A stretch of 64,000 nt of DNA from the NCBI GenBank assembly GCA_964575755.1, contig CAZNRH010000002.1, positions 70,351 through 134,350 of the forward strand, read 5' to 3'. The position numbers were made by a program, and so were the translations under genes. Positions 3,012 to 57,235 of this stretch are shown here, piece by piece. Positions within the stretch are counted from its first letter, which is position 1, and every line of letters begins with the position of its first letter. This stretch comes from an uncultured Candidatus Saccharibacteria bacterium (GTDB taxonomy: Bacteria; Patescibacteriota; Minisyncoccia; Phycocordibacterales; JABMNX01). The notes under the pieces were generated by a model. It saw nothing but the letters and a program-made list of their open reading frames with translations. It had not been told where the DNA came from and searched no databases.

Positions 3012-3029
3012 ACCACTTAGACGATCCGG
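3012..3029. repeat. 15-17 nt direct copy of the tRNA-Gln 5' end (ttagacgatccggca)
   Basis: Exact 15-nt match to 2851-2865, about 150 bp from the tRNA gene. Confidence 0.6.
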
Positions 3030-3101
3030 CAATTATTCTATTGTCTACTACAATATTAAATTACTACGTAATATTGCCTTAATTAAAGTATGTAATCAAG
3101 T

Positions 3102-15078: not shown

Positions 15079-15115
15079 GGACTCAAAATCGTGTCTCGCA
15101 AGGGATGAGGGTTCG
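15079..15115 (+). pseudogene. partial degenerate copy of the tRNA-Leu(CAA) anticodon-to-T-arm region
   Basis: gactcaaaatcgt and tgagggttc are identical to the tRNA 22 nt upstream. The rest has diverged. Confidence 0.55.
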
Positions 15116-18773: not shown

Positions 18774-19017
18774 AATGCATTTAATGATATATGTAAAATG
18801 TGGTGGTTACAAGGTGGATGAAGTGGTTAATATTTTCAAATCCTGCCTGGCGTGACAAACAAAATCACCCCATGCTTTCACATTGGGTGATTTTGTATTA
18901 TTTATTTGGCGCAGGTTTCTAAGCTCACTGCGTTCACTAAGAACCTCCTGCCCTAGCTCGCGGTAACAATTTTTAAGGAAAAAGAAAAATCGTTACATCG
19001 CTCCGCTTCACAGAAAC

Positions 19018-19048
19018 GTAAAAAACGAGGAACCAACCTCGTTTTTTT
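19018..19048 (-). terminator. terminator downstream of tRNA-Tyr
   Basis: Stem aaaaaacgagg/cctcgtttttt. Confidence 0.6.
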
Positions 19049-19057
19049 ACATTTCTG

Positions 19058-19141
19058 TGCGCCGGGCAGGATTTGAACCTGCGTAGGGCTATGCCCGTCA
19101 GATTTACAGTCTGATGCGATTGACCACTCCGCCACCGACGC
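19058..19141 (-). tRNA. tRNA-Tyr (anticodon GUA)
   Basis: Acceptor GCGTCGG/CCGGCGC. Anticodon stem TCAGA/TCTGA with loop CTGTAAA. Long variable arm. Discriminator A. Confidence 0.8.
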
Positions 19142-27125: not shown

Positions 27126-27209
27126 GCCGGGATGGTGGAATTGGTATACACGCAACACTTAAAATGTTGTGGGCGTAAGCCCATGCGGGTTCAACTCCCG
27201 CTCCCGGCA
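27126..27209 (+). tRNA. tRNA-Leu (anticodon UAA)
   Basis: Acceptor GCCGGGA/TCCCGGC. Anticodon stem CAACA/TGTTG with loop CTTAAAA. Long variable arm. Discriminator A. Confidence 0.8.
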
Positions 27210-27222
27210 CAAAGAGAAATGA

Positions 27223-27256
27223 ACCTCGTCTGAGAAGACGAGGTGATTTTCTTTTG
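27223..27256 (+). terminator. terminator after tRNA-Leu(UAA)
   Basis: Stem acctcgtct/agacgaggt followed by gattttctttt. Confidence 0.6.
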
Positions 27257-27258
27257 TA

Positions 27259-27388
27259 GCCGGGAGCGGGAGTTGAAAGACGGAAGCGGTATACAAGATG
27301 CGTAGTGAAACGGAGCAGGCTTGTCGCTGAGTCGGGGTCGAGAGTACTTAGTGCATAGCACTTAGTAACTCGTGACCAACTCCCGCTT
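27259..27388 (+). repeat. tRNA-linked AGACGGAAGC element (unit A)
   Basis: Starts with the reverse complement of the tRNA-Leu(UAA) 3' end (gccgggagcgggagttgaa). Then aagacggaagc. Core gctgagtcggggtcgaga. Ends ttagtaactcgtgacc plus a copy of the tRNA T-arm 3' strand (caactcccgct). Confidence 0.6.
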
Positions 27389-27457: not shown

Positions 27458-27530
27458 CCGCCTATAGCTCAGTTGGTAGAGCAACCGCCTCTTAAGCGGT
27501 GGGTCGCAGGTTCGAGTCCTGCTGGGCGGA
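27458..27530 (+). tRNA. tRNA-Lys (anticodon CUU)
   Basis: Acceptor CCGCCTA/TGGGCGG. D-arm GCTC-AGTTGGTA-GAGC. Anticodon loop CTCTTAA. T-arm GCAGG-TTCGAGT-CCTGC. Discriminator A. Confidence 0.85.
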
Positions 27531-27534
27531 CAAT

Positions 27535-27580
27535 GAAATAAAATACTCCCATTTTTGTGGGAGTATTTTATTTCATTTCT
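27535..27580 (+). terminator. long hairpin terminator after tRNA-Lys
   Basis: 17-bp stem gaaataaaatactccca/tgggagtattttatttc followed by atttcttc. Confidence 0.55.
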
Positions 27581-27588
27581 TCTACACT

Positions 27589-27720
27589 GGACTCGAAAGA
27601 CGGAAGCCCGCGTGCCAAAGCACGAGAGAGGGCTGAGTCGGGGTCGAGAACACTTAATATTTCAGGAATACCTGGACTAAAATATTTAGTGATTCGTGAC
27701 CGAGTCCTGCTGGGCGGACA
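27589..27720 (+). repeat. tRNA-linked AGACGGAAGC element (unit B)
   Basis: Starts ggactcgaa, the reverse complement of the tRNA-Lys T-loop/stem. Then agacggaagc. Core gctgagtcggggtcgaga. Ends tttagtgattcgtgacc plus an exact 20-nt copy of the tRNA-Lys 3' end (cgagtcctgctgggcggaca). Confidence 0.65.
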
Positions 27721-27796
27721 CGCGCAAAACAAAATACGCTATACCTATGGCGTATTTTGCTTTAACAAGCAAACTGCTTTGCTTGTGGAGCTTGTC

Positions 27797-27973
27797 CGAG
27801 ACGGAGCAATGTTTTGTTGCCTGTTTTTCCTAAGACAACAAAACCGCGAGCCCAGACCAAAAGCACTTAGTAGATTTCAAGCGAAGCGAAAAAATCTATT
27901 TAGTGACTTGTGGTGACTAAGTGATAAAATAAGGTTTGCGAATTTAGAAACCTGCGCCGAGTCCTTTAAATTA
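27797..27973 (+). repeat. GAGACGGAGC-motif element X1
   Basis: gagacggagcaatgttttgttgcc...aacaaaaccgcgag hairpin, then ...tttagtgacttgtggtgac...gcgaatttagaaacctg. Ends gcgccgagtcct, resembling the tRNA-Lys T-arm. Homologous to 46433-46532. Confidence 0.55.
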
Positions 27974-28021
27974 ACAACTTGTGATGACGAGGTACACTGC
28001 TTTTTGTATGTACTCGTGTCT

Positions 28022-28060
28022 GAGACGGAGTGATATTTTGGTACGATGCATCGCTCGGAA
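28022..28060 (+). repeat. GAGACGGAG-motif element X2 (short or partial)
   Basis: gagacggagtgatattttggtacgatgcatcgctc. Confidence 0.4.
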
Positions 28061-28125
28061 TAAATCAAACAAACACCACTTGAAACAAAATCAATACTAA
28101 ACTATACTAGTGGACACATATTAAT

Positions 28126-28189
28126 GTGCGAGTGGTGAAATTGGTAGGACAAACAGTGTTTAAACACTGTTTGTCCCCGTCGAGTGAGG
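28126..28189 (+). pseudogene. tRNA-like pseudogene (tRNA-Leu-derived 5' half, no T-arm or acceptor 3' strand)
   Basis: GTGCGAGTGGTGAAATTGGTAGGAC closely matches the 5' half of the adjacent tRNA-Leu (GCGCGAGTGGCGAAATTGGTAGAC). Followed by an aberrant anticodon hairpin with a 6-nt loop and no T-arm. Confidence 0.5.
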
Positions 28190-28218: not shown

Positions 28219-28300
28219 GCGCGAGTGGCGAAATTGGTAGACGCGCTAGTCTTAGGAACTAGTGGGGCAACCCATGGAGGTTCAAGTCCTCTCTCGCGCA
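28219..28300 (+). tRNA. tRNA-Leu (anticodon UAG)
   Basis: Acceptor GCGCGAG/CTCGCGC. Anticodon stem CTAGT/ACTAG with loop CTTAGGA. Long variable arm. Discriminator A. Confidence 0.85.
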
Positions 28301-28345
28301 CAGTGTCTATTTTTTATAGAACATAGTAAAAGGTATCGCAAGATG

Positions 28346-28373
28346 TGGAGGTTCAAGTCCTCTCTCGCGCACA
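28346..28373 (+). repeat. exact 28-nt direct copy of the tRNA-Leu(UAG) 3' end
   Basis: tggaggttcaagtcctctctcgcgcaca is identical to 28275-28302, with a 43-nt spacer. Confidence 0.8.
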
Positions 28374-28422: not shown

Positions 28423-28812
28423 TTAAAAAGAAACATTATCATTATAATGAGAATAAAAGTTACCACCTCCACTTCCTCTCCTCTCTATCACACCTGGTAT
28501 AATCACATTTTGATCCTGTACACTAAAAGTAGATTGGAGCATTCTAATCAATCCCCAAATTGAAACCATTACAAAAAGAGCAATAATTCCATATATCATA
28601 ATGTCTCGCCCTTCGGATTTTTTATCCTCACTTCCTTGATTAAATATGAACTGAGCCAACCCCCAGAAGAAATAAAGCACTGCAAGAGCTAGTACCAACG
28701 GAATTGCCGTATTTATTAAGCTAGAAAAAGTACCCATCACAGCTTCCAAACTTTGAGCACTAGCCACTAGTGGCATAATAAGCAATCCTAACGCCACAAA
28801 AAATGTTTTCAT
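28423..28812 (-). CDS. TrbC/VirB2-like pilin-type small membrane protein
   Basis: Signal peptide MKTFFVALGLLIMPLVASA followed by two TM helices (AIPLVLALAVLYFFWGLAQ and IMIYGIIALFVMVSIWGLIRML). Confidence 0.6.
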   Translation of the reverse strand: MKTFFVALGLLIMPLVASAQSLEAVMGTFSSLINTAIPLVLALAVLYFFWGLAQFIFNQGSEDKKSEGRDIMIYGIIALFVMVSIWGLIRMLQSTFSVQDQNVIIPGVIERRGSGGGNFYSHYNDNVSF

Positions 28813-28837
28813 ATAATTTAATACTACAACACTATTA

Positions 28838-29086
28838 CTATATTGGCAAGTCGAACATATTTTCCATAAGTCTGACGATACCGAGTGCAGCGATCATAAC
28901 AAACATACCAATCACACCCCACAACATATGTACCTTTCCCTCTTTTCTGTCGTCTTCACTATCTGCCTTCCAGATAAAGACCGTCATACCCCACAGGAAA
29001 TACAAGAAAGCAGTTGCAAATAAAAGCAGTATAAGCGGGTTTATAATAACCGTATTTATGTTATCGATAAGCCTGTCTGTCGTCAT
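28838..29086 (-). CDS. TrbC/VirB2-like small membrane protein (no signal peptide)
   Basis: Two TM helices with the same ...FLWG...MLWGVIGMFVMIAALGIVRLM pattern as its neighbours. Confidence 0.45.
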   Translation of the reverse strand: MTTDRLIDNINTVIINPLILLLFATAFLYFLWGMTVFIWKADSEDDRKEGKVHMLWGVIGMFVMIAALGIVRLMENMFDLPI

Positions 29087-29095
29087 ACCTTACTA

Positions 29096-29431
29096 TTACC
29101 TCTTTACTTCCTTAGGAATAATAACAGTCTGATCTGTTACACTAAAAGTAGATTGGAGCATTCTAATCAATCCCCAAATTGAAACCATTACAAAAAGAGC
29201 AATAATTCCATATATCATAATGTCTCGCCCTTCGGATTTTTTATCCTCACTTCCTTGATTAAATATGAACTGAGCCAACCCCCAGAAGAAATAAAGCACT
29301 GCAAGAGCTAGTACCAACGGAATTGCCGTATTTATTAAGCTAGAAAAAGTACCCATCACAGCTTCCAAACTTTGAGCACTAGCCACTAGTGGCATAATAA
29401 GCAATCCTAACGCTACAAAAAATGTTTTCAT
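29096..29431 (-). CDS. TrbC/VirB2-like pilin, near-identical paralog of 28423-28812
   Basis: Start set at MKTFFVALG. The first ~100 codons are ~99 percent identical at DNA level to the paralog. The C-terminus differs. Confidence 0.6.
   Translation of the reverse strand: MKTFFVALGLLIMPLVASAQSLEAVMGTFSSLINTAIPLVLALAVLYFFWGLAQFIFNQGSEDKKSEGRDIMIYGIIALFVMVSIWGLIRMLQSTFSVTDQTVIIPKEVKR
29131..29431. repeat. ~300-bp segmental duplication (partner 28510-28812)
   Basis: Near-identical DNA over about 300 bp. Only isolated single-base differences were seen. It covers the 5' parts of two pilin genes. Confidence 0.8.
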
Positions 29432-29567
29432 ATAAAATTTATTTAATATTTCTTTTAATAGAAACCTTCTACTAATAATCAATTATAATTATAGAGTAAT
29501 AATAGCCGATAATTGCACTAAAGAGCAATCCAGCAGTGTGGATATAGTAAACCACACTAAAATTCAG

Positions 29568-29930
29568 CTAAATTCTTATAGTCTCACCTGGAGTATACTG
29601 CTGTTGCGTGGAACCACCAGAACCTAAAAAAGTATTACTTAAAAGACGTAAAATACCCCAAATAGATACCATAACAAAAAGTGCAATAATACCGTAAATC
29701 ATAAGCTTTCTGCCATCTTCTATCTTAGAAGTATCTCCAGCTGAAAATATATATTGAGAAACTCCCCAAAAGAACCCAAGAACTGCTAACGCAATTATTA
29801 TAGGAACCGCTAAATTAATAAAACCTACCAACAACCCAACAAGCTCAGGAAAAGTCTGCGGAGCAGCGAAAGTAACCATTGGAATAAATAGAAGTGCTGA
29901 TAATGTTAATATTGTAAGTCTTTTTAACAT
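29568..29930 (-). CDS. TrbC/VirB2-like pilin-type small membrane protein
   Basis: Signal peptide MLKRLTILTLSALLFIPMVTFA. TM helices AVPIIIALAVLGFFWG and LMIYGIIALFVMVSIWGILRLL. Confidence 0.6.
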   Translation of the reverse strand: MLKRLTILTLSALLFIPMVTFAAPQTFPELVGLLVGFINLAVPIIIALAVLGFFWGVSQYIFSAGDTSKIEDGRKLMIYGIIALFVMVSIWGILRLLSNTFLGSGGSTQQQYTPGETIRI

Positions 29931-29933
29931 AAT

Positions 29934-30350
29934 TTATCCAGTTAAAAGTCCGATAGTGTTTCTTACAATAATTGCCAATGTCCAAGAACCAAGGAATAAG
30001 GCTACCCCAATAATTGTATAGTAAAAAGTCTTCTTAGCTTCTTCAATCTTTGTTACATTACCCTGTGCTGTAACAAAAAGGAATCCAGAATACACAATAG
30101 ACAACACCGCTATTGGAAGTCCTATATTAATAACTGCCTTTAGAAGCAACTCAACAAATTTTTCAAAGCTATAGATACCGCTATTTTCTAATGGGTTTTC
30201 TAAACCAGCTGCAAGTGCATATGGTACTGTAACCATAAAAAAGAAAATAAATGTTGTTAATGTTTTTTGAATCCCATACGAAATAGGACACGGACTTATA
30301 GTATTTTTATCCACAAGTATAGATTTTATATTAATTGTCAACTTTTTCAT
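29934..30350 (-). CDS. TrbC/VirB2-like small membrane protein (start uncertain; N-terminus reads through a repeat element)
   Basis: Two TM helices (INIGLPIAVLSIVYSGFLF and IIGVALFLGSWTLAIIV). The ATG at 30350 lies in the loop of element copy b. An alternative ATG lies at 30236. Confidence 0.5.
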   Translation of the reverse strand: MKKLTINIKSILVDKNTISPCPISYGIQKTLTTFIFFFMVTVPYALAAGLENPLENSGIYSFEKFVELLLKAVINIGLPIAVLSIVYSGFLFVTAQGNVTKIEEAKKTFYYTIIGVALFLGSWTLAIIVRNTIGLLTG

Positions 30351-45148: not shown

Positions 45149-46342
45149 ATGAAAAAAATACAACCAGACGTTGAAGCATTTGCACGAATACGAGTAGTTG
45201 GAGTAGGAGGTTCAGGAAACAACGCTGTTAATCACATGATTAACACGAAAGTAACCGGTGTCGATTTTGTATCAATAAACACTGACGCACAAGCACTACA
45301 TGGCTCAACCGCAAAGAAGAAGATTCACATCGGTAAAAATCTTACACGAGGTCTTGGAACAGGCATGAACCCAGAAATGGGAAAGCAGGCAGCAGAAGAA
45401 ACGAAAGAAGAAATCCAAGAAGCTGTTAAAGGTTCTGACATGGTTTTCGTAACCTATGGAGCTGGTGGAGGAACTGGTACAGGAGCAGCTCCTGTGGTAG
45501 CTAAGATAGCGCGAGATTCAGGAGCACTGACCGTAGCTGTTGTTACTAAGCCTTTTTCTTTTGAAGGACAACAGAGAATGCGCTTAGCAGAACTTGGACT
45601 TGAAGAAATCAAAAAAGAAGTAGATGCGCTTATAGTTATCCCTAACGACCGACTACTTGCTGTTGTACAGCGTGAGACCTCTGTCAAAAATGCATTTGCA
45701 ATGTGTGACGACATACTAAAGCAAGCTGTTGAAGGTATTTCAGACCTTATTACCATGCCAGGAATAATTAATGTCGACTTCGCAGACGTTCGCGCTGTTA
45801 TGGACAATGCTGGTTCGGCTCTTATGGGTATCGGAACAGCTACAGGTGAGAAACGAACTGAAGATGCTGCTAAAGCAGCTATCAGCTCACCTCTTCTTGA
45901 AGTTTCAATAGCAGGAGCTAAAGGAGTATTGTTCTCAGTTGCAGGTGGTGATGACCTCTCAATGCTTGAAATTCAAGACGCAGCTAAGGTAATTACAGAA
46001 TCAATTGATCCAAACGCAAAGGTTATCTTTGGAACAGTACAAGATGACAAACTTAAGAAGAATGAAGTAAAGGTGACCGTTATCGCAACAGGATTCCCTG
46101 AAAATTCAATGCCGTCAGGAAAAAGCTCTTCCCTATTCCAGCTTCCAAAGAAGGATGCAGAAAAAACAGAAGAAAAAAAAGAAAGTAAAATTTATAATTC
46201 AGTAGCAAAGTTAACAAACGACCCTAAAAAAACAGACAAGAAAGATGATGCAAAGAAAGACGGAGATGTAAAAAAAGATGATACAGATGATGACGACTGG
46301 GGCGCAGTTCCAGCATTTTTGCGACGGTCGAAGTTAAAGTAA
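45149..46342 (+). CDS. ftsZ: cell division GTPase FtsZ
   Basis: [10 protein letters not shown] tubulin signature. Acidic linker. C-terminal AVPAFLRR peptide. Confidence 0.95.
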
Positions 46343-46390
46343 ACTTCGATTCGCAAAAATGCGAACTGCGCCCCAGTGGGGCACAAAAAT

Positions 46391-46428
46391 GTAAAAAAAT
46401 GAAGCCAATGCTTCATTTTTTTACATTT
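46391..46428 (+). terminator. rho-independent terminator of ftsZ
   Basis: Stem gtaaaaaaatgaagc/cttcatttttttac followed by atttttg. Confidence 0.65.
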
Positions 46429-46432
46429 TTGT

Positions 46433-46532
46433 GAGACGGAGCGATGTTTTGTTTTCCATTTTTACTAGAAAACAAAACCGCGAGTCCGGAGAGGAAGTTC
46501 TTAACAAGCGTAGCGAGTTTAGAAACTTGACC
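46433..46532 (+). repeat. GAGACGGAGC-motif element X3 (homolog of X1), bracketed by two terminators
   Basis: gagacggagcgatgttttgttttcc...aaaacaaaaccgcgagtcc...caagcgtagcgagtttagaaacttgacc shares blocks with 27797-27973. Confidence 0.55.
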
Positions 46533-46560
46533 TCAGTTCCAGCTTTCCTACATTGTAAGC

Positions 46561-46592
46561 AAAAAACACCTCACTTTGTGAGGTGTTTTTGT
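46561..46592 (+). terminator. rho-independent terminator
   Basis: Stem aaaaaacacctca/tgaggtgttttt. Confidence 0.6.
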
Positions 46593-49552: not shown

Positions 49553-50149
49553 TTATGTATCAGACTTCCTGTCACTATTTTCTTCTCTATGTTTAAGCTC
49601 ACGACCCCATATATCCGCATTTACTTTTAAAACATCCGTGTATCCATCGGCGCCAGTCCGTAATTCTTGTGAAATATTATTTCTTGAAGAATATATAAAT
49701 ACCTTTTTCCCAGCATTTCTTATGTATCTAATGAGACCAAGAAAATCTGAATCACCAGTAAAAAATATCGCTATATCATAATTATTTTTGTTATGTATAG
49801 CGTCAATAGTTATCTCAACGTCCATATCACCTTTTTCTTGTATTACACCACCCTCTTCTGTTGAAATGTTTATCCTTTTTAATTGTTTTTTGCGTACATT
49901 AAAATTAAGACCTTTTTTAAGATATGTATAAAATTTATGCTTACCATCTAAACTATAATCTCTGGTTCCTTTTGCTGGGTATGCTGTATAATAGAAAACT
50001 TCCAAATGTTTTGTCTTATGTTCATCTCTTAAATAACTCTTTAACTTCTCATAATCAAAAGTCATACCTTTAGCTTTTTGGGCTTGCCATATATTAGAAG
50101 CATCTATAAAAACATACGCAGTATTCGTTTGTTTATCTTTTCTAAACAT
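49553..50149 (-). CDS. NYN/LabA-like (PIN-like) domain protein
   Basis: AYVFIDASN...GDMDVEITIDAI...IAIFFTGDSDFLGLIRYIRNAGKKV. Confidence 0.7.
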   Translation of the reverse strand: MFRKDKQTNTAYVFIDASNIWQAQKAKGMTFDYEKLKSYLRDEHKTKHLEVFYYTAYPAKGTRDYSLDGKHKFYTYLKKGLNFNVRKKQLKRINISTEEGGVIQEKGDMDVEITIDAIHNKNNYDIAIFFTGDSDFLGLIRYIRNAGKKVFIYSSRNNISQELRTGADGYTDVLKVNADIWGRELKHREENSDRKSDT

Positions 50150-51833: not shown

Positions 51834-53318
51834 CTAAAGTTCTTTTAATTTCTTGTAGATTTCTACCATAGCAAGAGTATCTAGCTCACAATACTTTAAC
51901 AGGTTTTCTCGTGTCTTTTCAATATCTCCTTGTTGCATGTCCCTTTTTATCATCTTCTCCCACTCACTGAGTGCCATTGTACCATCTTGAATATCCAAAC
52001 TCTTATATGAAAGCTCTGGCAGAAGTACTGGTAGAACTTTTTTAATAGAAGCACTTCCCTTAAACTCTGGGTCCAAGTAATCTTTCTTAAATACCTTCAT
52101 CAAGTCAAACACCCTGCTATTTATATCCTCCAAAAAGCTCCTGTCTTCAGGATGAAGCTCCATAAGCTCCATATTTCTAGCCTTCTCAAAGCTCTCATAC
52201 CACACCACAACACTGCCCACGGGGCCTATATGAGCCTTGAGAGTGTCTACTAAGCTTTTTGTAGCGCCTGCGAGTTTATCAGCTAAATACTCAAAATGCT
52301 CAAGTTTACCATCTTCACTTAGTTTATGTATAGAGACCTGAAATACAAGCTGTTGATTCGTCTTGTATCGATCAAGTAGAGGTATCGGTGAGCCGTACGT
52401 CTCATAATCTAAGAAATATATAGGGAATACTAATTCAGACAGTGTCTTTTCAATAGCCTCCTTATTAATTCGAGGTCTTCCAGAAACCTGCAAGCTTACT
52501 TTGTCATTTTGAATATCAGTTAAGTCAAAACCCTCTGGAATATCTTTAATATTCACAATTCCATCTGCTAAAAGTAATCGGAGTTTATTACCCGCTACAA
52601 TATGGTGCACCGAGTATTCAGGTACTTGAGGGTTAAATTTAAAGAAAGAGTCGCATCTCTGGCCATGTGTTTTGTAGAGGCACTCACATCCCTCAAGCAA
52701 TATGTCGTCTTTGTCTAAAGTTTCGAGAGCGACTTTGATTTCATCTCGCACCACATCCTTTTGTTCTGTTACTGTATCTGTTATATTTTCAATTACAAAA
52801 AGCTGTTTAATGTCCACCTCCCCACTCCTCCTATATTTCTTATTAATATATACGATGTAGCTGTCGCCGACTTCGACTCCAGCATCCTCCACCACAATAG
52901 TCTGAAAGACGACGTCTTTAATATGATTGTGTTTTAAATCTGTTTTTATTTCAGAGCTCGCTTTGATCTCGTACAAGTCCCACTTGGAAGTTTCCTTATT
53001 AAAATTAAGCATATCAACTTTAGCGAAAAGCCCCTGCTTTGTTTCAAATGTAGCTTGAAAAATTGGCTTCTTATCATTTTCTTTGTCCTTAAGAAGCTCT
53101 TTTGTCTTCGACAAAAGAGCTTCCTTGTCTCCAGACACGAAAACACCATCAGGAAAAAGCTTCTGCACATACGACTCAACCTCGTATCCATCTTTTATAA
53201 GTTTCTTAAGGAAAAGAGAAAACTCCCCCGCCACATACTCCTCCGGACGTTTCTTCTTCAACCACAAGCTCTTCCCACACAACAACCACTCCTTAAATTC
53301 TGTCTTAGTCAGTTTCAT
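51834..53318 (-). CDS. DUF2779-like nuclease: N-terminal Cas4/RecB-type PD-(D/E)xK domain with Cys cluster plus C-terminal DEDD-like 3'-5' exonuclease domain
   Basis: DLYEIKAS...CECLYKTHGQRCDSFF (nuclease with Fe-S-like cysteines). YFLDYETYGSPIP (Exo I-like) and YCELD (Exo III-like). Confidence 0.6.
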   Translation of the reverse strand: MKLTKTEFKEWLLCGKSLWLKKKRPEEYVAGEFSLFLKKLIKDGYEVESYVQKLFPDGVFVSGDKEALLSKTKELLKDKENDKKPIFQATFETKQGLFAKVDMLNFNKETSKWDLYEIKASSEIKTDLKHNHIKDVVFQTIVVEDAGVEVGDSYIVYINKKYRRSGEVDIKQLFVIENITDTVTEQKDVVRDEIKVALETLDKDDILLEGCECLYKTHGQRCDSFFKFNPQVPEYSVHHIVAGNKLRLLLADGIVNIKDIPEGFDLTDIQNDKVSLQVSGRPRINKEAIEKTLSELVFPIYFLDYETYGSPIPLLDRYKTNQQLVFQVSIHKLSEDGKLEHFEYLADKLAGATKSLVDTLKAHIGPVGSVVVWYESFEKARNMELMELHPEDRSFLEDINSRVFDLMKVFKKDYLDPEFKGSASIKKVLPVLLPELSYKSLDIQDGTMALSEWEKMIKRDMQQGDIEKTRENLLKYCELDTLAMVEIYKKLKEL

Positions 53319-54581: not shown

Positions 54582-56435
54582 ATGCAAAAAGATTTAGAGA
54601 AAACTTTAAATAATTATAGTCCTTTTATTATTGAAACAGCTCTTGTTCAATTATTTATTGACTCTAATAATTTAACTGTAAAAAAAAATGAACTTATTAG
54701 ATCTCTACTAGAAAATAAAAGTGAAGAAATTCTGAAAGCTAAGGAGTTTCTAATAAACAAGATAGAAACAAAAAATATAATCGACTTTGTAAATATATTT
54801 GAATTACTAATTCCTTTAGATGATAAAAAAAATAACGGAGCCTTCTTTACTCCGTCAAATATTACTGATTTTATAGTTTCTGAAACAATAGACTCAAGAT
54901 CTCAGAGAATTCTAGACCCTAGTTGCGGGTGTGGCGCTTTCCTTATCTCTGCCACAGACTTTATTGCAAAAAAATATAATAAGAGTGTCACGAAAACAAT
55001 TGAAGAAAATATATTTGGAGTGGACATAGCAAAATACAGCATAAAAAGAGCTAAAATTCTTCTTTCGCTTCTCGCTCTTAAAAATAATGAGGATAAAAAA
55101 GAAATAAAATTCAATCTTAAAACAAAAGACAGTTTGACGACTGACTGGAAAAAATTATTTCCAGAAATAAAAAATGGGTTCGACGTGGTTATAGGTAATC
55201 CTCCTTATGTTAAATTCCAAGACCTTAACGAAGACCTAAGGAAAAGTCTGTCTAAAAATTGGCAAACCCTAAATACTGGAAATTATAATCTTTATTTTGC
55301 CTTCTTTGAGTTAGGAATTAGTGTTATGAAAAATACTGGAGTACTTGGTTATATTACACCTAACAACTATTTTACTTCCTTAGCGGGAATTCATCTCAGA
55401 GAATTCCTAGAATCTAATAGGTTAATAGAAAAAATTATTGATTTCAACCACTTTAAAGTTTTTGATGCTCAAACATATACAAGTATAAGTTTTTTAAGTA
55501 AAGGTAATAACGTATCTTTCGATTATGAAAAAATCGATGACTGTGCGAAATTAAATTCATTAAAAAAATTACAATACTCGAAAATAAATTTTAGTGATTT
55601 AAATAATAAAAAATGGCGACTTCTACGTCATGGTGATCAAGAGAATATAAAAAAAATTGAAAATATAGGTAGAAAACTAGGAGATATAGTAAAAATTAGA
55701 GTTGGAGTAGCTACATGCAAAGATTCTGTGTACTTTGTGGACGGTTCAACTTTTGATGGAAAATATTTACATAAATCATACAACGGGAAGGATTATTTTA
55801 TTGAAAAAGACATTACTCAATCAATAGCAAAAATTTCTGACTTTAAAGCACAAGATGACCTAGGCGAAAACAATCGAAGAATAATTTTCCCTTATAGAAA
55901 AAAAAATAGAAACGTAGAAATCATTGAGGAAGATAAGTTAAAAAAAAAATACCCTTATTGTTATAAGTATCTTATGGCTGCTAAGTCAGAACTGGCATCA
56001 AGAGACAAGGGAGCTGTTAATTATCCAGAATGGTACGCCTACGCAAGAACCCAAGGACTTAATTTTTTAGGGAAAAAGCTACTTACTCCAACATTCAGCT
56101 CTAAGCCAAGGTTTCTGCTTGAAAAGAATGAAAATACACTATTCTGTAACGGATATGCTATTTACTTAGACAATAGACCGTCTTTATTTTACAAAACTGA
56201 ACAAAAATTAAATCTGTCCATTCTTAGCAAAATACTCAATTCGTCTATAATGGAATACTACATTAAACAAACTAGCGTATCTATTGATGGTGGGTACCCA
56301 TGCTATCAAAAGAATTTTATTGAACTGTTAGGAATTCCGGACTTCACCTCAAACGAACTAGGTTACTTAAACAGGGAAAAAGATGGAAAATTAATTAATG
56401 ATTTTTTAACAGGTAAATACGGTGTGCAAATCTAG
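54582..56435 (+). CDS. N6-adenine DNA methyltransferase, Eco57I-like (gamma-class) with C-terminal target-recognition region
   Basis: Motif I ILDPSCGCGAFL. Motif IV VIGNPPYV. Preceded by FFTPSNITDFIV. Confidence 0.85.
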   Translation: MQKDLEKTLNNYSPFIIETALVQLFIDSNNLTVKKNELIRSLLENKSEEILKAKEFLINKIETKNIIDFVNIFELLIPLDDKKNNGAFFTPSNITDFIVSETIDSRSQRILDPSCGCGAFLISATDFIAKKYNKSVTKTIEENIFGVDIAKYSIKRAKILLSLLALKNNEDKKEIKFNLKTKDSLTTDWKKLFPEIKNGFDVVIGNPPYVKFQDLNEDLRKSLSKNWQTLNTGNYNLYFAFFELGISVMKNTGVLGYITPNNYFTSLAGIHLREFLESNRLIEKIIDFNHFKVFDAQTYTSISFLSKGNNVSFDYEKIDDCAKLNSLKKLQYSKINFSDLNNKKWRLLRHGDQENIKKIENIGRKLGDIVKIRVGVATCKDSVYFVDGSTFDGKYLHKSYNGKDYFIEKDITQSIAKISDFKAQDDLGENNRRIIFPYRKKNRNVEIIEEDKLKKKYPYCYKYLMAAKSELASRDKGAVNYPEWYAYARTQGLNFLGKKLLTPTFSSKPRFLLEKNENTLFCNGYAIYLDNRPSLFYKTEQKLNLSILSKILNSSIMEYYIKQTSVSIDGGYPCYQKNFIELLGIPDFTSNELGYLNREKDGKLINDFLTGKYGVQI

Positions 56436-57235
56436 AAAATATCTTTACTCCCGAATCTTTTAGTATAAATATCTAACATATCTTTTGTAAATCCACTTAT
56501 TGTAAGATTTTTCAAGTTGACTTTTGTGTTTTTAGAAACCAACCCATCCATCTTCAACTCTTTAATTGAAGAATAAAGTTTAGGGCTTTTTTTTCTGAAA
56601 TCAACAATTAAAAGACAGACTCTTTCATATTTATACTCGTTTCCTTTTATAGAATGTCTGTTATTAATGGCTTGAAACATTCGTATGTATTCTTCTATAT
56701 TTGAAACTGACTTGAATTCTACTTTATTTTGCAACATTGCTTTATCATCATATTCGTGAGTAGGTATTAAGTATACTTCTCCCATACACTGTTTAGGATG
56801 ATTTAAATGTAAGTTTAAAGCTTCTGCAAACGTTCTCTCATATAAAGTGTCAATGTTTTTCTTTAAGCTACTTAATTGACTACGTACATTAACGCTAATA
56901 ATCCTTTTTATTCTAGGATCATCAGTATTAGTTATAGGTATCAACTCAATATTAGGAATAATGACGATGTCTTGGTTTTTTGACTTTAAAAACCCTTTGA
57001 TTTTAATCTCAGGACTAGATTCTCCAACTGGTGGAAAAATCTTTTGTGATTGAACTTTATTTTCTACAAAATCTCTTTTTATAAAATCATGAATAATATT
57101 TATTATTTTTTGGGAACGAATTAAAGCTTCTTTGGCTTTATGTCCATTTTCATATGTATTACCATTAAACTTCGAAGTGGTAATTGCTTCGTCATAATCT
57201 TTCTTTATTTTTTTGAGAACCTGTTGTATTGTCAT
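56432..57235 (-). CDS. candidate restriction endonuclease partner (unclassified)
   Basis: 267-aa ORF convergent with and overlapping the methyltransferase stop. Possible PD-D/ExK-like D...E(V)K segments. No firm family assignment. Confidence 0.35.
   Translation of the reverse strand: MTIQQVLKKIKKDYDEAITTSKFNGNTYENGHKAKEALIRSQKIINIIHDFIKRDFVENKVQSQKIFPPVGESSPEIKIKGFLKSKNQDIVIIPNIELIPITNTDDPRIKRIISVNVRSQLSSLKKNIDTLYERTFAEALNLHLNHPKQCMGEVYLIPTHEYDDKAMLQNKVEFKSVSNIEEYIRMFQAINNRHSIKGNEYKYERVCLLIVDFRKKSPKLYSSIKELKMDGLVSKNTKVNLKNLTISGFTKDMLDIYTKRFGSKDIF

Follow-up and report, generated by a model that had tools for sequence, protein, structure and literature searches.

Genomes of the candidate phyla radiation (CPR; Patescibacteria) are tiny and are believed to hold few repeats. 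In a 64-kb stretch of one such genome (contig CAZNRH010000002.1; 37.5% GC, ten tRNA genes), which was analyzed over its full length and is referred to here as the window, short hairpin-forming sequences recur behind tRNA genes and behind ftsZ, and the question is what these sequences are and how they came to lie there. An original prediction, made from the letters of the window, listed three related structured elements (27797-27973, 28022-28060, and a copy at 46433), pointed to a motif, AGACGGA(A)GC, that they share with tRNA-linked units, and favored an independently transcribed small RNA between two terminators, with a mobile insertion as the alternative. We found that five copies of one structured element take up about 1.5 kb of the window and that these copies belong to a family that is new and lies outside every known family tested. 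The interpretation that we lean towards is that the element is a non-autonomous, site-specific mobile insertion of Patescibacteria that enters genes and rebuilds their 3' ends. The proteins nearest to FtsZ and IF-2 of the window come from Kaiserbacteria/Paceibacteria.

The sequences at 27798-27917 (B1) and 46433-46536 (B3) are homologous according to nhmmer (E 7e-9 and 2e-9) and score 90.7 bits (E 2e-21) and 91.3 bits (E about 1e-21), respectively, with a covariance model that was built from an alignment of 19 cores; both methods thus agree with the proposed kinship of the copies at 27797 and 46433. Both copies carry the gttttgtt/aacaaaac hairpin, which is helix P2 of the fold described below, and have the blocks GAGACGGAGC(A/G)ATG, CCGCGAGY, GCGWAGCGA, and TTTAGAAACYTG in common. 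The AGACGGA(A)GC units linked to tRNA genes, at 27277-27379 (A1, 55.6 bits) and 27597-27703 (A2, 71.9 bits), can be aligned with the B copies over their entire length and are members of the same family, as the shared motif had suggested. A fifth full copy, B4, which the original prediction did not list, lies on the minus strand at 18905-19009, after tRNA-Tyr (83 bits). When the window was searched with the covariance model and all filters off, these five matches were found (E 1e-12 to 1e-21) and no other position scored better than E 0.7; because the model recovers the five copies and nothing else, types A and B represent one family. The second listed element, 28022-28060, is merely a 5' fragment (B2, 28022-28041), which matches at 83% over 24 nt at its 5' end (nhmmer E 9.4), has no complementary hairpin arm, and was not detected by the covariance model with filters off. 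The extent given for the first copy also had to be revised, as B1 stops at 27917 and the rest consists of a second, 5'-truncated copy and a tRNA-Lys remnant; the T-arm-like ending assigned to this copy does derive from tRNA-Lys (CGAGTCCT, with cgagtcct at 27958-27965 as a remnant of positions 56-63), and lies outside B1.

The core of the element, about 95-120 nt in size, folds as 5'-NNC-G-GA-GCG-AUG-[P2 hairpin]-A-CCGC-GA-G-N'N'-GGG-[P3, base GUCGCGA / UUGUGAC]-3'. Helix P1 consists of three base pairs (NNC/GN'N'), in which the N pairs sample nearly all Watson-Crick combinations; next to P1 is an internal loop with tandem G.A, followed by a 3-bp helix, GCG/CGC, which in type A is AGC/GCU, a fully compensated exchange. 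P2 is a variable hairpin, and a GGG linker leads to the long helix P3, the base of which includes conserved G.U pairs and the distal part of which defines subfamilies (ACUUA...UUAGU in the window, a AAUUUUCCGUCAGGAAAAUU type, and a CCGAGGAGGCGGAAGCC type). RNAalifold identified 24 pairs in the 19 aligned cores, 21 of them with compensatory changes. In an alignment of 76 distinct sequences, which was itself fitted to the model, 95.1% of the cells are paired, compared to 70.7% in column shuffles and 33-47% with slid partners, and double changes are present in 23 of the 24 pairs. This covarying fold upholds the earlier claim that the elements are structured, and chance similarity is excluded by the E-values and the covariation. 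RNAfold predicts closed three-way junctions for A1 and A2 (z -5.4 and -3.5), and the predicted folds of B3 and B4 have the same two arms as A1 and A2; helix P1 of B1 is degenerate (GA/CC) and broken. A protein-coding reading was considered for an open reading frame (ORF) at 27557-27916 (119 aa), which spans two copies; this ORF is unconserved and lies in a region with RNA-type covariation, and the reading was rejected.

Within the motif 5'-NNC-G-GA-GCG / CGC-GA-GN'N', the tandem G.A lies between two helices, both of which covary, and the bulge is a single G. Compared by sequence and secondary structure, this motif resembles a kink-turn in its tandem G.A flanked by two covarying Watson-Crick helices and differs from it in the 1-nt bulge (3 nt in the canonical form) and in that no L7Ae-type partner was found. 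As a separate observation, P3 of the window subfamily (B1, B3, and B4; e.g., 27872-27910) contains an invariant, two-fold symmetric CUUAG/CUUAG site with a central U.U mismatch, and the apical P3 loop of the same three copies is a GCGAAGC-type mini-hairpin with a GNA triloop and a covarying closing pair; the symmetric site and the mini-hairpin hint at a dimeric binding partner or at a hairpin that is stable in single-stranded DNA.

The family is distributed across CPR lineages. A pattern derived from the B copies, run against one genome per species, yielded 15 loci; 13 have an informative title and are metagenome-assembled genomes (MAGs) of Patescibacteria (labeled Saccharibacteria, Kaiser-, Wolfe-, or Paceibacteria), and the remaining two are labeled only "bacterium". 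A scan of metagenomes matched at least 120 stretches, 80 loci of which were analyzed further; the covariance model identified 86 copies in these, with E-values that reach 1e-28, and in total it detects more than 120 copies. All named source genomes are thus CPR genomes and, among the sources found, the family is restricted to this radiation. Three pattern scans of IMG/VR viral contigs gave no genuine copy: two were empty, and the 68 stretches returned by the loosest all scored at most 20 bits with the model and represent GC-rich random sequence, so that a viral origin was rejected. Rfam 15 contains no family for the element when the whole window is searched at gathering score; searches around all window copies with E up to 10, and on eight further loci with E up to 0.1, returned only tRNA/tmRNA and chance hairpin matches. 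No description of the element was found in the literature searched, by topic or by sequence string; papers on TIGR-Tas (PMC12045711) and on the group I introns that Patescibacteria carry in tRNA genes (PMC13011429) deal with subjects that differ from it.

The position of the element relative to tRNA genes is highly regular. At the genome loci, nearly all copies share their strand with a tRNA gene that ends 40-90 nt before them, and a tmRNA gene precedes one copy; among the metagenome matches listed, a same-strand tRNA (17 isotypes) or tmRNA gene is found less than 200 nt upstream for 53 of 84 copies, with many of the remaining copies located at contig ends. In 36 of the 70 copies with an upstream tRNA, the core ends (...GUGAC|) right at a direct copy of upstream sequence, and 28 of these 36 abutting copies begin precisely at C56 of the T-loop, just past GGTT. 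The copied segment runs from C56 to the 3' end of the tRNA, often further, sometimes through the terminator, and at three loci reaches 5-33 nt into the next core; its length ranges from 9 to 102 nt, and several are 100% identical to their source. At the other end of the core, a segment that we term T'b is found: in 32 of about 57 copies linked to tRNA genes, a 10-mer complementary to tRNA positions 56-65 with at most two mismatches is located 1 nt upstream of the core, and its contiguous pairing with the adjacent tRNA covers 8-17 nt. Where the T-stem contains G.U, T'b complements the 3' strand in all four decisive cases and is therefore not a copy of the 5' half of the tRNA; the notion of a degenerate duplicated tRNA with the core in its T-loop was accordingly rejected, as T'b holds the reverse complement of the T-loop and follows the 3' strand. 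T'b still matches the functional tRNA at six loci where the right-hand copy has decayed (L101, L211, L209, L154, L136, and L148; L numbers designate loci outside the window), with L007 as an exception, in which T'b matches a foreign T-arm allele in the right-hand copy. A guide at the 3' end, with the right-hand copy in this role as in TnpB-like systems, was weakened as a candidate, given that this copy decays and is absent from many members.

Before T'b stands a hairpin that scores as a terminator, has A and T runs at its sides, and in many cases carries a conserved CUGC loop; the stem of this hairpin commonly reaches into the final nucleotides of the gene upstream, which gives near-perfect palindromes of 45-86 nt. 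The CTGC-loop type is also present in L004, L009, L010, L124, and L153-155, among others. Some copies that abut a C56 copy are truncated at their 5' end (L011, L014, L015, L158, and L211), and others consist of terminal 5' core fragments that end in P2 (L130, L089, L012, and L117). In L130 (6576-6672), L089 (2558-2662), and L012 (7080-7140), arrays of "1.3 units" end in a perfect unit repeat that halts 16-33 nt into the core, within the 5' strand or the loop of P2; a search past the partial cores of L130 and L089 gave no second half of an interrupted "autonomous" copy.

The tRNA-linked copies in the window illustrate this organization (all features are on the plus strand, except those at tRNA-Tyr). 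Core A1 (27277-27379) lies 3' of tRNA-Leu(taa) (27126-27210); between the two, an 86-nt palindrome at 27190-27277 comprises the 3' end of tRNA-Leu, a terminator (27223-27244), and a 19-nt inverted copy (27259-27277), and behind A1 is an 11-nt direct copy of tRNA-Leu(taa) that starts at C56 (CAACTCCCGCT, 27377-27387). Core A2 (27597-27703) lies 3' of tRNA-Lys(ctt) (27458-27531); its T'b (ctggactcgaa, 27587-27597) complements the T-loop and the 3' strand of the T-stem of tRNA-Lys with nine contiguous pairs, and the GTGAC end of A2 is abutted by 20 nt that perfectly repeat tRNA-Lys from C56 through the 3' end and 1 nt beyond (CGAGTCCTGCTGGGCGGACA, 27701-27720). The sequence past this right-hand copy is orthologous to the native region downstream of tRNA-Lys in L210. 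The tRNA-Lys array as a whole has the order terminator, T'b, A2, C56 copy, two hairpins with ttgtcc, B1, truncated copy, and a hairpin with B2. In the 5' module of B1 (27726-27797), a terminator-like hairpin (27726-27763) is followed by one with an aCTGCt loop (27765-27786) and by ttgtcc, a complement of the 3' end of tRNA-Lys plus flank; L210 retains a remnant of a hairpin module of this type. B1 itself (27798-27917) is orthologous to L209 4154-4273. It is followed at 27934-27965 by the 3' end of an older, 5'-truncated copy (27934-27957; ..tttagaaacctgcgc; ..TTTAGAAACCTGCGC) with the tRNA-Lys remnant described above, and at 27986-28041, the distal end of the array, by a 3'-truncated copy that consists of a CTGC-type hairpin and the core 5' fragment B2 (GAGACGGAGTGATATTTTGG). 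On the minus strand, core B4 (18905-19009) lies 3' of tRNA-Tyr (19057-19141), and is preceded by a hairpin (19010-19058); behind the core come a terminator and the 3' end of tRNA-Tyr in inverted copy (18835-18847). The hairpins at 27223-27244, 27533-27576, and 19047-19020, all before cores, score as intrinsic terminators.

At the ftsZ-trxB site, where B3 lies, the coding end of a protein gene is involved (all features on the plus strand). A long hairpin (46296-46377; palindrome score 94) joins the final ~35 nt of ftsZ, stop codon included, to an inverted copy of the gene end (46343-46374) located right behind the stop codon; this is followed by ggggcaca, by a perfect 52-nt hairpin with a T run (CACAAAAATGTAAAAAAATGAAGC.., 46382-46433), by core B3 (46433-46536), and by a displaced, decayed copy of the ftsZ 3' coding end (cagttccagctttcctacattgtaag, 46534-46559). 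The terminator at 46562-46590 is outside the element and is the native terminator of ftsZ, orthologous to the terminators that stand directly after ftsZ in L085 and L087. The geometry envisaged in the original prediction, in which the copy at 46433 lies between the ftsZ terminator and a second terminator, must therefore be turned around, as the upstream hairpin is inserted DNA and the downstream hairpin is native. The 46382-46433 hairpin is homologous, with compensatory changes, to the hairpins before B4, L008 2596, and L084. The junction sequence at ftsZ, CAGTTCCAGC, may be read as resembling the T-loop/T-stem consensus C-R-A-N-T-C-C-N-G-C. This duplicated and decayed ftsZ end, the junction at T-loop C56, and the target-complementary segment before the core are features that the original prediction had missed.

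Comparisons with relatives show that sites can be empty or occupied. The ftsZ-trxB spacer is 308 nt in the window, 600 nt in L084, 108 nt in L085, and 42 nt in L087; in L085 and L087 (FtsZ 83-85% identical), ftsZ is followed directly by the terminator, with no element. In L084, from the closest relative (MAG CAZVBS; FtsZ 91% identical), the core at ftsZ is the variant that the window carries after tRNA-Tyr, and the spacer holds two additional copies of the FtsZ C-terminal coding end; the ftsZ variant of the window is found after tRNA-Gly in MAG CAZVBS (L008), such that core variants have been exchanged between loci when the window and its closest relative are compared. In a more distant MAG (L002), the ftsZ-trxB copies have an intact FtsZ-tail copy and an inverted copy between them. 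As a side observation, L084 4303-4535 carries about 160 nt of extra hairpins after P1 and in distal P3, and these positions thus tolerate large insertions.

The infB-rbfA-tRNA(Cys, Leu, Lys, Leu) cluster, which is syntenic in four relatives, shows the same turnover, with no core in L210 (only a hairpin remnant after tRNA-Lys), one core and a truncated older copy in L211, two cores and an HNH gene in L212, three cores plus fragments in the window, and five cores in L209. Empty sites are seen in relatives at each tRNA of this cluster, which supports the mobile insertion that the original prediction had named as an alternative. B1 is common to the window and L209 and therefore old. At the C56 junction of tRNA-Lys, the window, L209, and L212 each have a different core variant, and in each T'b fits the T-stem of its own genome. 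One L209 copy is located 3' of the native tRNA-Cys terminator; because of this position, the inserted piece can be described as complement, core, and copy.

In the mobile-insertion reading, which we favor, the element would enter at the 3' ends of tRNA and tmRNA genes and occasionally at T-arm-like sequences that end protein genes. Each unit would bring a target copy that starts at T-loop C56 and runs to the gene end, so that the gene stays intact, a terminator-like hairpin (often with a CUGC loop), a T'b of 8-17 nt complementary to target positions 56-65 and beyond, and the core, directly behind whose ...GUGAC end the displaced original 3' end of the gene would be left to decay. The core may act as an RNA that is produced by read-through from the upstream gene, with the sense strand favored because of the conserved G.U pairs and the strand polarity; a factor encoded elsewhere, a recombinase or a reverse transcriptase, would handle the core, and T'b could position the element on its target as a guide or a closing helix. 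Three versions of the insertion step can be envisaged, namely (i) a crossover exchange, of Campbell type or double, in the duplicated segment, to which natural transformation may contribute, (ii) a nick at 55/56 from which target-primed synthesis starts, a version with which the precise 3' junction, variable duplications, and 5'-truncated copies would agree, and (iii) insertion of a tRNA-like complement-core-copy module behind terminators, followed by homogenization with the neighboring tRNA.

A number of points weigh against this reading. None of the versions accounts for arrays with a partial 5' core at their end (L130, L089, and L012), and B3 and B4 are "type II" copies with no clear C56 junction. 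Presence and absence could stem from precise loss between direct repeats, the swaps of core variants could be due to gene conversion among paralogous copies rather than transposition, and the match between T'b and the tRNA could persist through hairpin-templated correction rather than a guide function. The covariation in 76 sequences was obtained, as stated above, with an alignment fitted to the model. The window has no gene for a transposase, integrase, reverse transcriptase, or TnpB/IscB, and clustering of 391 neighboring ORFs revealed no recurrent partner protein. Each core is preceded by a terminator-like hairpin, and no sigma-70-like promoter is present directly 5' of any core in the window. 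Given the absence of a promoter, independent transcription, as the original prediction had proposed, is unshown, and with neither a partner gene nor a promoter, we infer rather than observe both expression and mobilizing activity.

A more specific idea, which we regard as tentative, is that the core and T'b together constitute a programmable guide RNA or ribozyme of an undescribed, CPR-confined mobile system; such an RNA would home to position 55/56 of tRNA genes or to T-arm-like sites and restore the 3' end of the gene with the help of a reverse transcriptase or recombinase encoded in trans, and the mechanism, directed by nucleic-acid pairing, would be a new one.

It seems rather unlikely, in turn, that the element is a vertically inherited host RNA in the trailer of tRNA transcripts that has been lost repeatedly and that controls folding, processing, or quality control of the upstream tRNA. 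Such an RNA would be tRNA-like, with its 5' segment paired to the (duplicated) 3' half of the tRNA, and RNase P, RNase Z, or RNase III would be involved. The strict same-strand position 40-90 nt after tRNAs of 17 isotypes and tmRNA, the fact that T'b follows the functional tRNA and not the decaying right copy, the conservation of unpaired core nucleotides deep across CPR classes, and the filling of the tRNA-Lys site in several lineages are all consistent with this explanation, as is the predicted three-way junction of A1 and A2, the closing helix of which may mimic the acceptor/T stack. However, copies also occur after ftsZ, rplU, and other protein genes, with the coding 3' end duplicated; only about 30% of the tRNAs in the window carry a copy, and the cluster of the close relative L210 has none. 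One locus may hold different variants, tandem arrays, or truncated copies, some duplications of 56-102 nt show 100% identity and thereby indicate recent events, and the GC content of the element (0.45-0.7) is independent of that of its hosts (0.26-0.5).

Less likely than a host RNA are two further explanations. One of them, which we consider improbable, interprets the units as footprints of islands or prophages mobilized by integrases into the T-loops of tRNA and tmRNA genes, with an attL/attR pair, a non-coding region next to attP, and a cargo that was deleted or, as in cis-mobilizable elements (CIMEs), mobilized in trans. At tRNA and tmRNA genes, the classical signature of tyrosine integrases is a direct repeat that begins in the T-loop and runs to the 3' end, as Williams reportedly described in 2002, and repeats of this type are what we see (28 of 36 starting at C56; in the window, 27701-27720 and 27377-27387). 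The right-hand copy in L007, with its foreign T-arm allele matching T'b, looks as expected after a crossover in the acceptor part, large serine recombinase genes are located near the copies in L103 and L125/L132, and other tRNA gene fragments are present in the window (PMC9897764 provides background on tRNA fragments). What speaks against such footprints is that the units, at just 150-200 bp, contain no integrase, that no recombinase lies between the repeats or consistently adjacent to them (serine recombinases are near three loci only), that the viral contig scans gave no genuine copy, that covariation with conserved G.U pairs would not be expected for protein-binding attP arms, that duplications often extend far past the tRNA end and even into the core, and that one L209 copy is 3' of a native terminator.

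The second, an independently transcribed, trans-acting small regulatory RNA between two terminators, as the original prediction preferred, appears quite improbable: while the units are discrete and structured, with a terminator behind them and a strongly conserved fold, there is no promoter-like site 5' of the cores, the multi-copy, locus-variable, and often truncated or tandem arrangement is atypical for a regulator, and the sole target-like complementarity is to the adjacent tRNA. Neutral, unstructured decaying repeats or chance similarity, suggested by the decay of B2 and several fragments and by the broken P1 of B1, can practically be dismissed, as the E-values range from 1e-12 to 1e-28, 23 of 24 pairs show compensatory changes, and the element is conserved across distant CPR lineages.

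If the favored mobile-insertion reading holds, the element would be closest in its working to tRNA-integrating elements, and would also resemble guide-bearing mobile RNAs such as group II introns and OMEGA RNAs. With the islands and prophages of T-loop tyrosine integrases and with CIMEs it shares the regenerated 3' end, the T-loop-to-3'-end repeat, the use of tmRNA as a target, and the reuse of the same gene; it differs from them in its units of about 150-200 bp with no recombinase, its covarying core, its inverted target-complementary segment, its variable duplications of up to 102 nt, and the lack of genuine copies in the viral contig scans.

Group II introns are similar in that an internal segment complements the flanking target and covaries with the site (exon-binding and intron-binding sites, EBS-IBS) and in their ties to terminator hairpins and gene 3' ends (class C introns after terminator hairpins). 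Unlike them, the element has no GUGYG 5' end, domain V, or reverse transcriptase ORF, measures about 100 nt (group II introns exceed 600 nt), pairs with a target 3' of the junction, not 5', and has no Rfam intron match; a group II intron was rejected on these grounds. A group I intron was likewise rejected, with no Intron_gpI match at E up to 10, a ..GUGAC rather than a G at the end, and helix P1, unpaired with ..GGUU, as the segment after T'b. An intron in the T-loop with the right-hand copy as exon 2 was rejected as well; for none of these intron readings does the element have an intron core or consensus ends, and the right-hand copy in L007 is also incompatible with the T-stem of its own tRNA. 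Self-cleaving ribozymes (hammerhead, twister, pistol, hatchet, hepatitis delta virus [HDV], and hairpin) gave no Rfam match; for hammerhead, the junction sequences (AA / GGG / none) also appear, by eye, to be unlike its core.

OMEGA (obligate mobile element-guided activity) RNAs of IscB/TnpB and palindrome-associated transposable elements (PATEs) have a similarly compact scaffold RNA flanked by a short target-matching segment, and many of their copies are protein-less; RNAs of the IscB/Cas9 type also have a 5' segment plus scaffold layout, with a fixed motif (here GGTT) preceding the target. By contrast, no IscB/TnpB gene is near the element, and neither of the Rfam models HEARO and IS605-orfB gives a match. 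Insertion of the element goes with a duplicated target segment, whereas IS605 insertions make no duplication; an IS200/IS605 omega-RNA or PATE was therefore rejected, with no TnpB/IscB in the window or among the neighbors. Analogies to TIGR-Tas, which would require 36-nt arrays, and to IS110 bridge RNAs, which would require two programmable internal loops, did not apply either.

Finally, the element resembles the tRNA-related short interspersed elements (SINEs) and target-primed elements of eukaryotes in being non-autonomous, about 100-200 nt, multi-copy, and tRNA-linked, and in its precise 3' junction (at C56), variable target duplications (9-102 nt), and many 5'-truncated copies (L011, L014, L015, L158, L211, and 27934-27957); it differs in having no 3' tail, in that no reverse transcriptase partner was found, and in its additional 3'-truncated copies (L130, L089, L012, and B2). 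To our knowledge, there is no such SINE-like retroelement in bacteria. Because the element fails defining tests of tRNA-integrating elements, group II introns, and OMEGA RNAs, we class it as new among mobile elements that target gene ends.

If mobile, the element would be a compact insertion that spares essential targets (tRNA, tmRNA, ftsZ) by bringing a replacement 3' end and a terminator, and the short segment that matches the target would make it interesting for programmable insertion; as a host RNA, the element would instead point to an unrecognized level at which a major bacterial radiation matures its tRNAs or controls their quality. In practice, the element accounts for tRNA gene fragments and inflated spacers of tRNA clusters in CPR MAGs, and the covariance model can be used to annotate it; it is present in more than 100 metagenomic contigs.

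With regard to neighboring genes, the units (150-200 bp) contain no ORF. Among the neighbors, large serine recombinases are found near three loci and small GIY-YIG proteins near four; the former (L103 3122-4468; L125 160-1719, with the same gene in L132) have Resolvase, Recombinase, and Zn_ribbon domains and lie 430-660 nt from copies. The copy in L103 has a tRNA-like 3' half, but the 4.9 kb upstream of it contain no tRNA. In one relative only, an HNH endonuclease gene (Pfam HNH_3/HNH; L212 5682-6203) stands free between tRNA-Cys and tRNA-Leu(taa). The genes between tRNA-Ser and a solo copy in L142 were considered as cargo and rejected, as they encode ordinary membrane or secreted proteins and the tRNA-Ser is a different one.

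Several tRNA genes of the window and its relatives bear traces of other rearrangements. Upstream of tRNA-Leu(tag) (28219-28301), a 23-nt 5' fragment of that gene (28125-28147) is followed by a perfect 30-nt palindrome, and downstream is a relic of a tRNA-Leu(tag) 3' half (28322-28373) with a variable arm (ggtatcgcaagat) of the L210/L211 type; the functional gene bears a variable arm of the L209 type. These fragments look as if most of the gene had been swapped for incoming DNA. A 15-nt copy of the tRNA-Gln 5' end (3017-3031) lies upstream of the tRNA-Gln gene, and short copies of the tRNA-Leu(caa) anticodon/T-arm (15080-15092 and 15106-15114) lie just 3' of that gene, both with no adjacent core. 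In L210 (5655-5745) and L212 (6283-6400), the first ~21 nt of tRNA-Lys (atatccgcctatagctcagtt) are duplicated around an insert of ~70-100 nt upstream of tRNA-Lys; these inserts, which contain a conserved GTCCGAGCAACC, possibly belong to another type of small insertion, directed at the D-loop region and accompanied by duplication of the tRNA 5' end. The window has no insertion of this type.

Elsewhere in the window, four tandem paralogous small membrane proteins are encoded on the minus strand at 28423-30350, two of them nearly identical over about 110 aa, and their orthologues in relatives have Pfam T4SS_pilin/TrbC matches. A 617-aa ORF at 54582-56435 encodes, by eye, a putative restriction-modification-like protein of the N6-adenine methyltransferase type and is convergent to a 267-aa ORF at 56432-57235. 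Nearby, Pfam matches identify a 494-aa DUF2779/RNase_H-like protein at 51834-53318 and an NYN-domain protein at 49553-50149.

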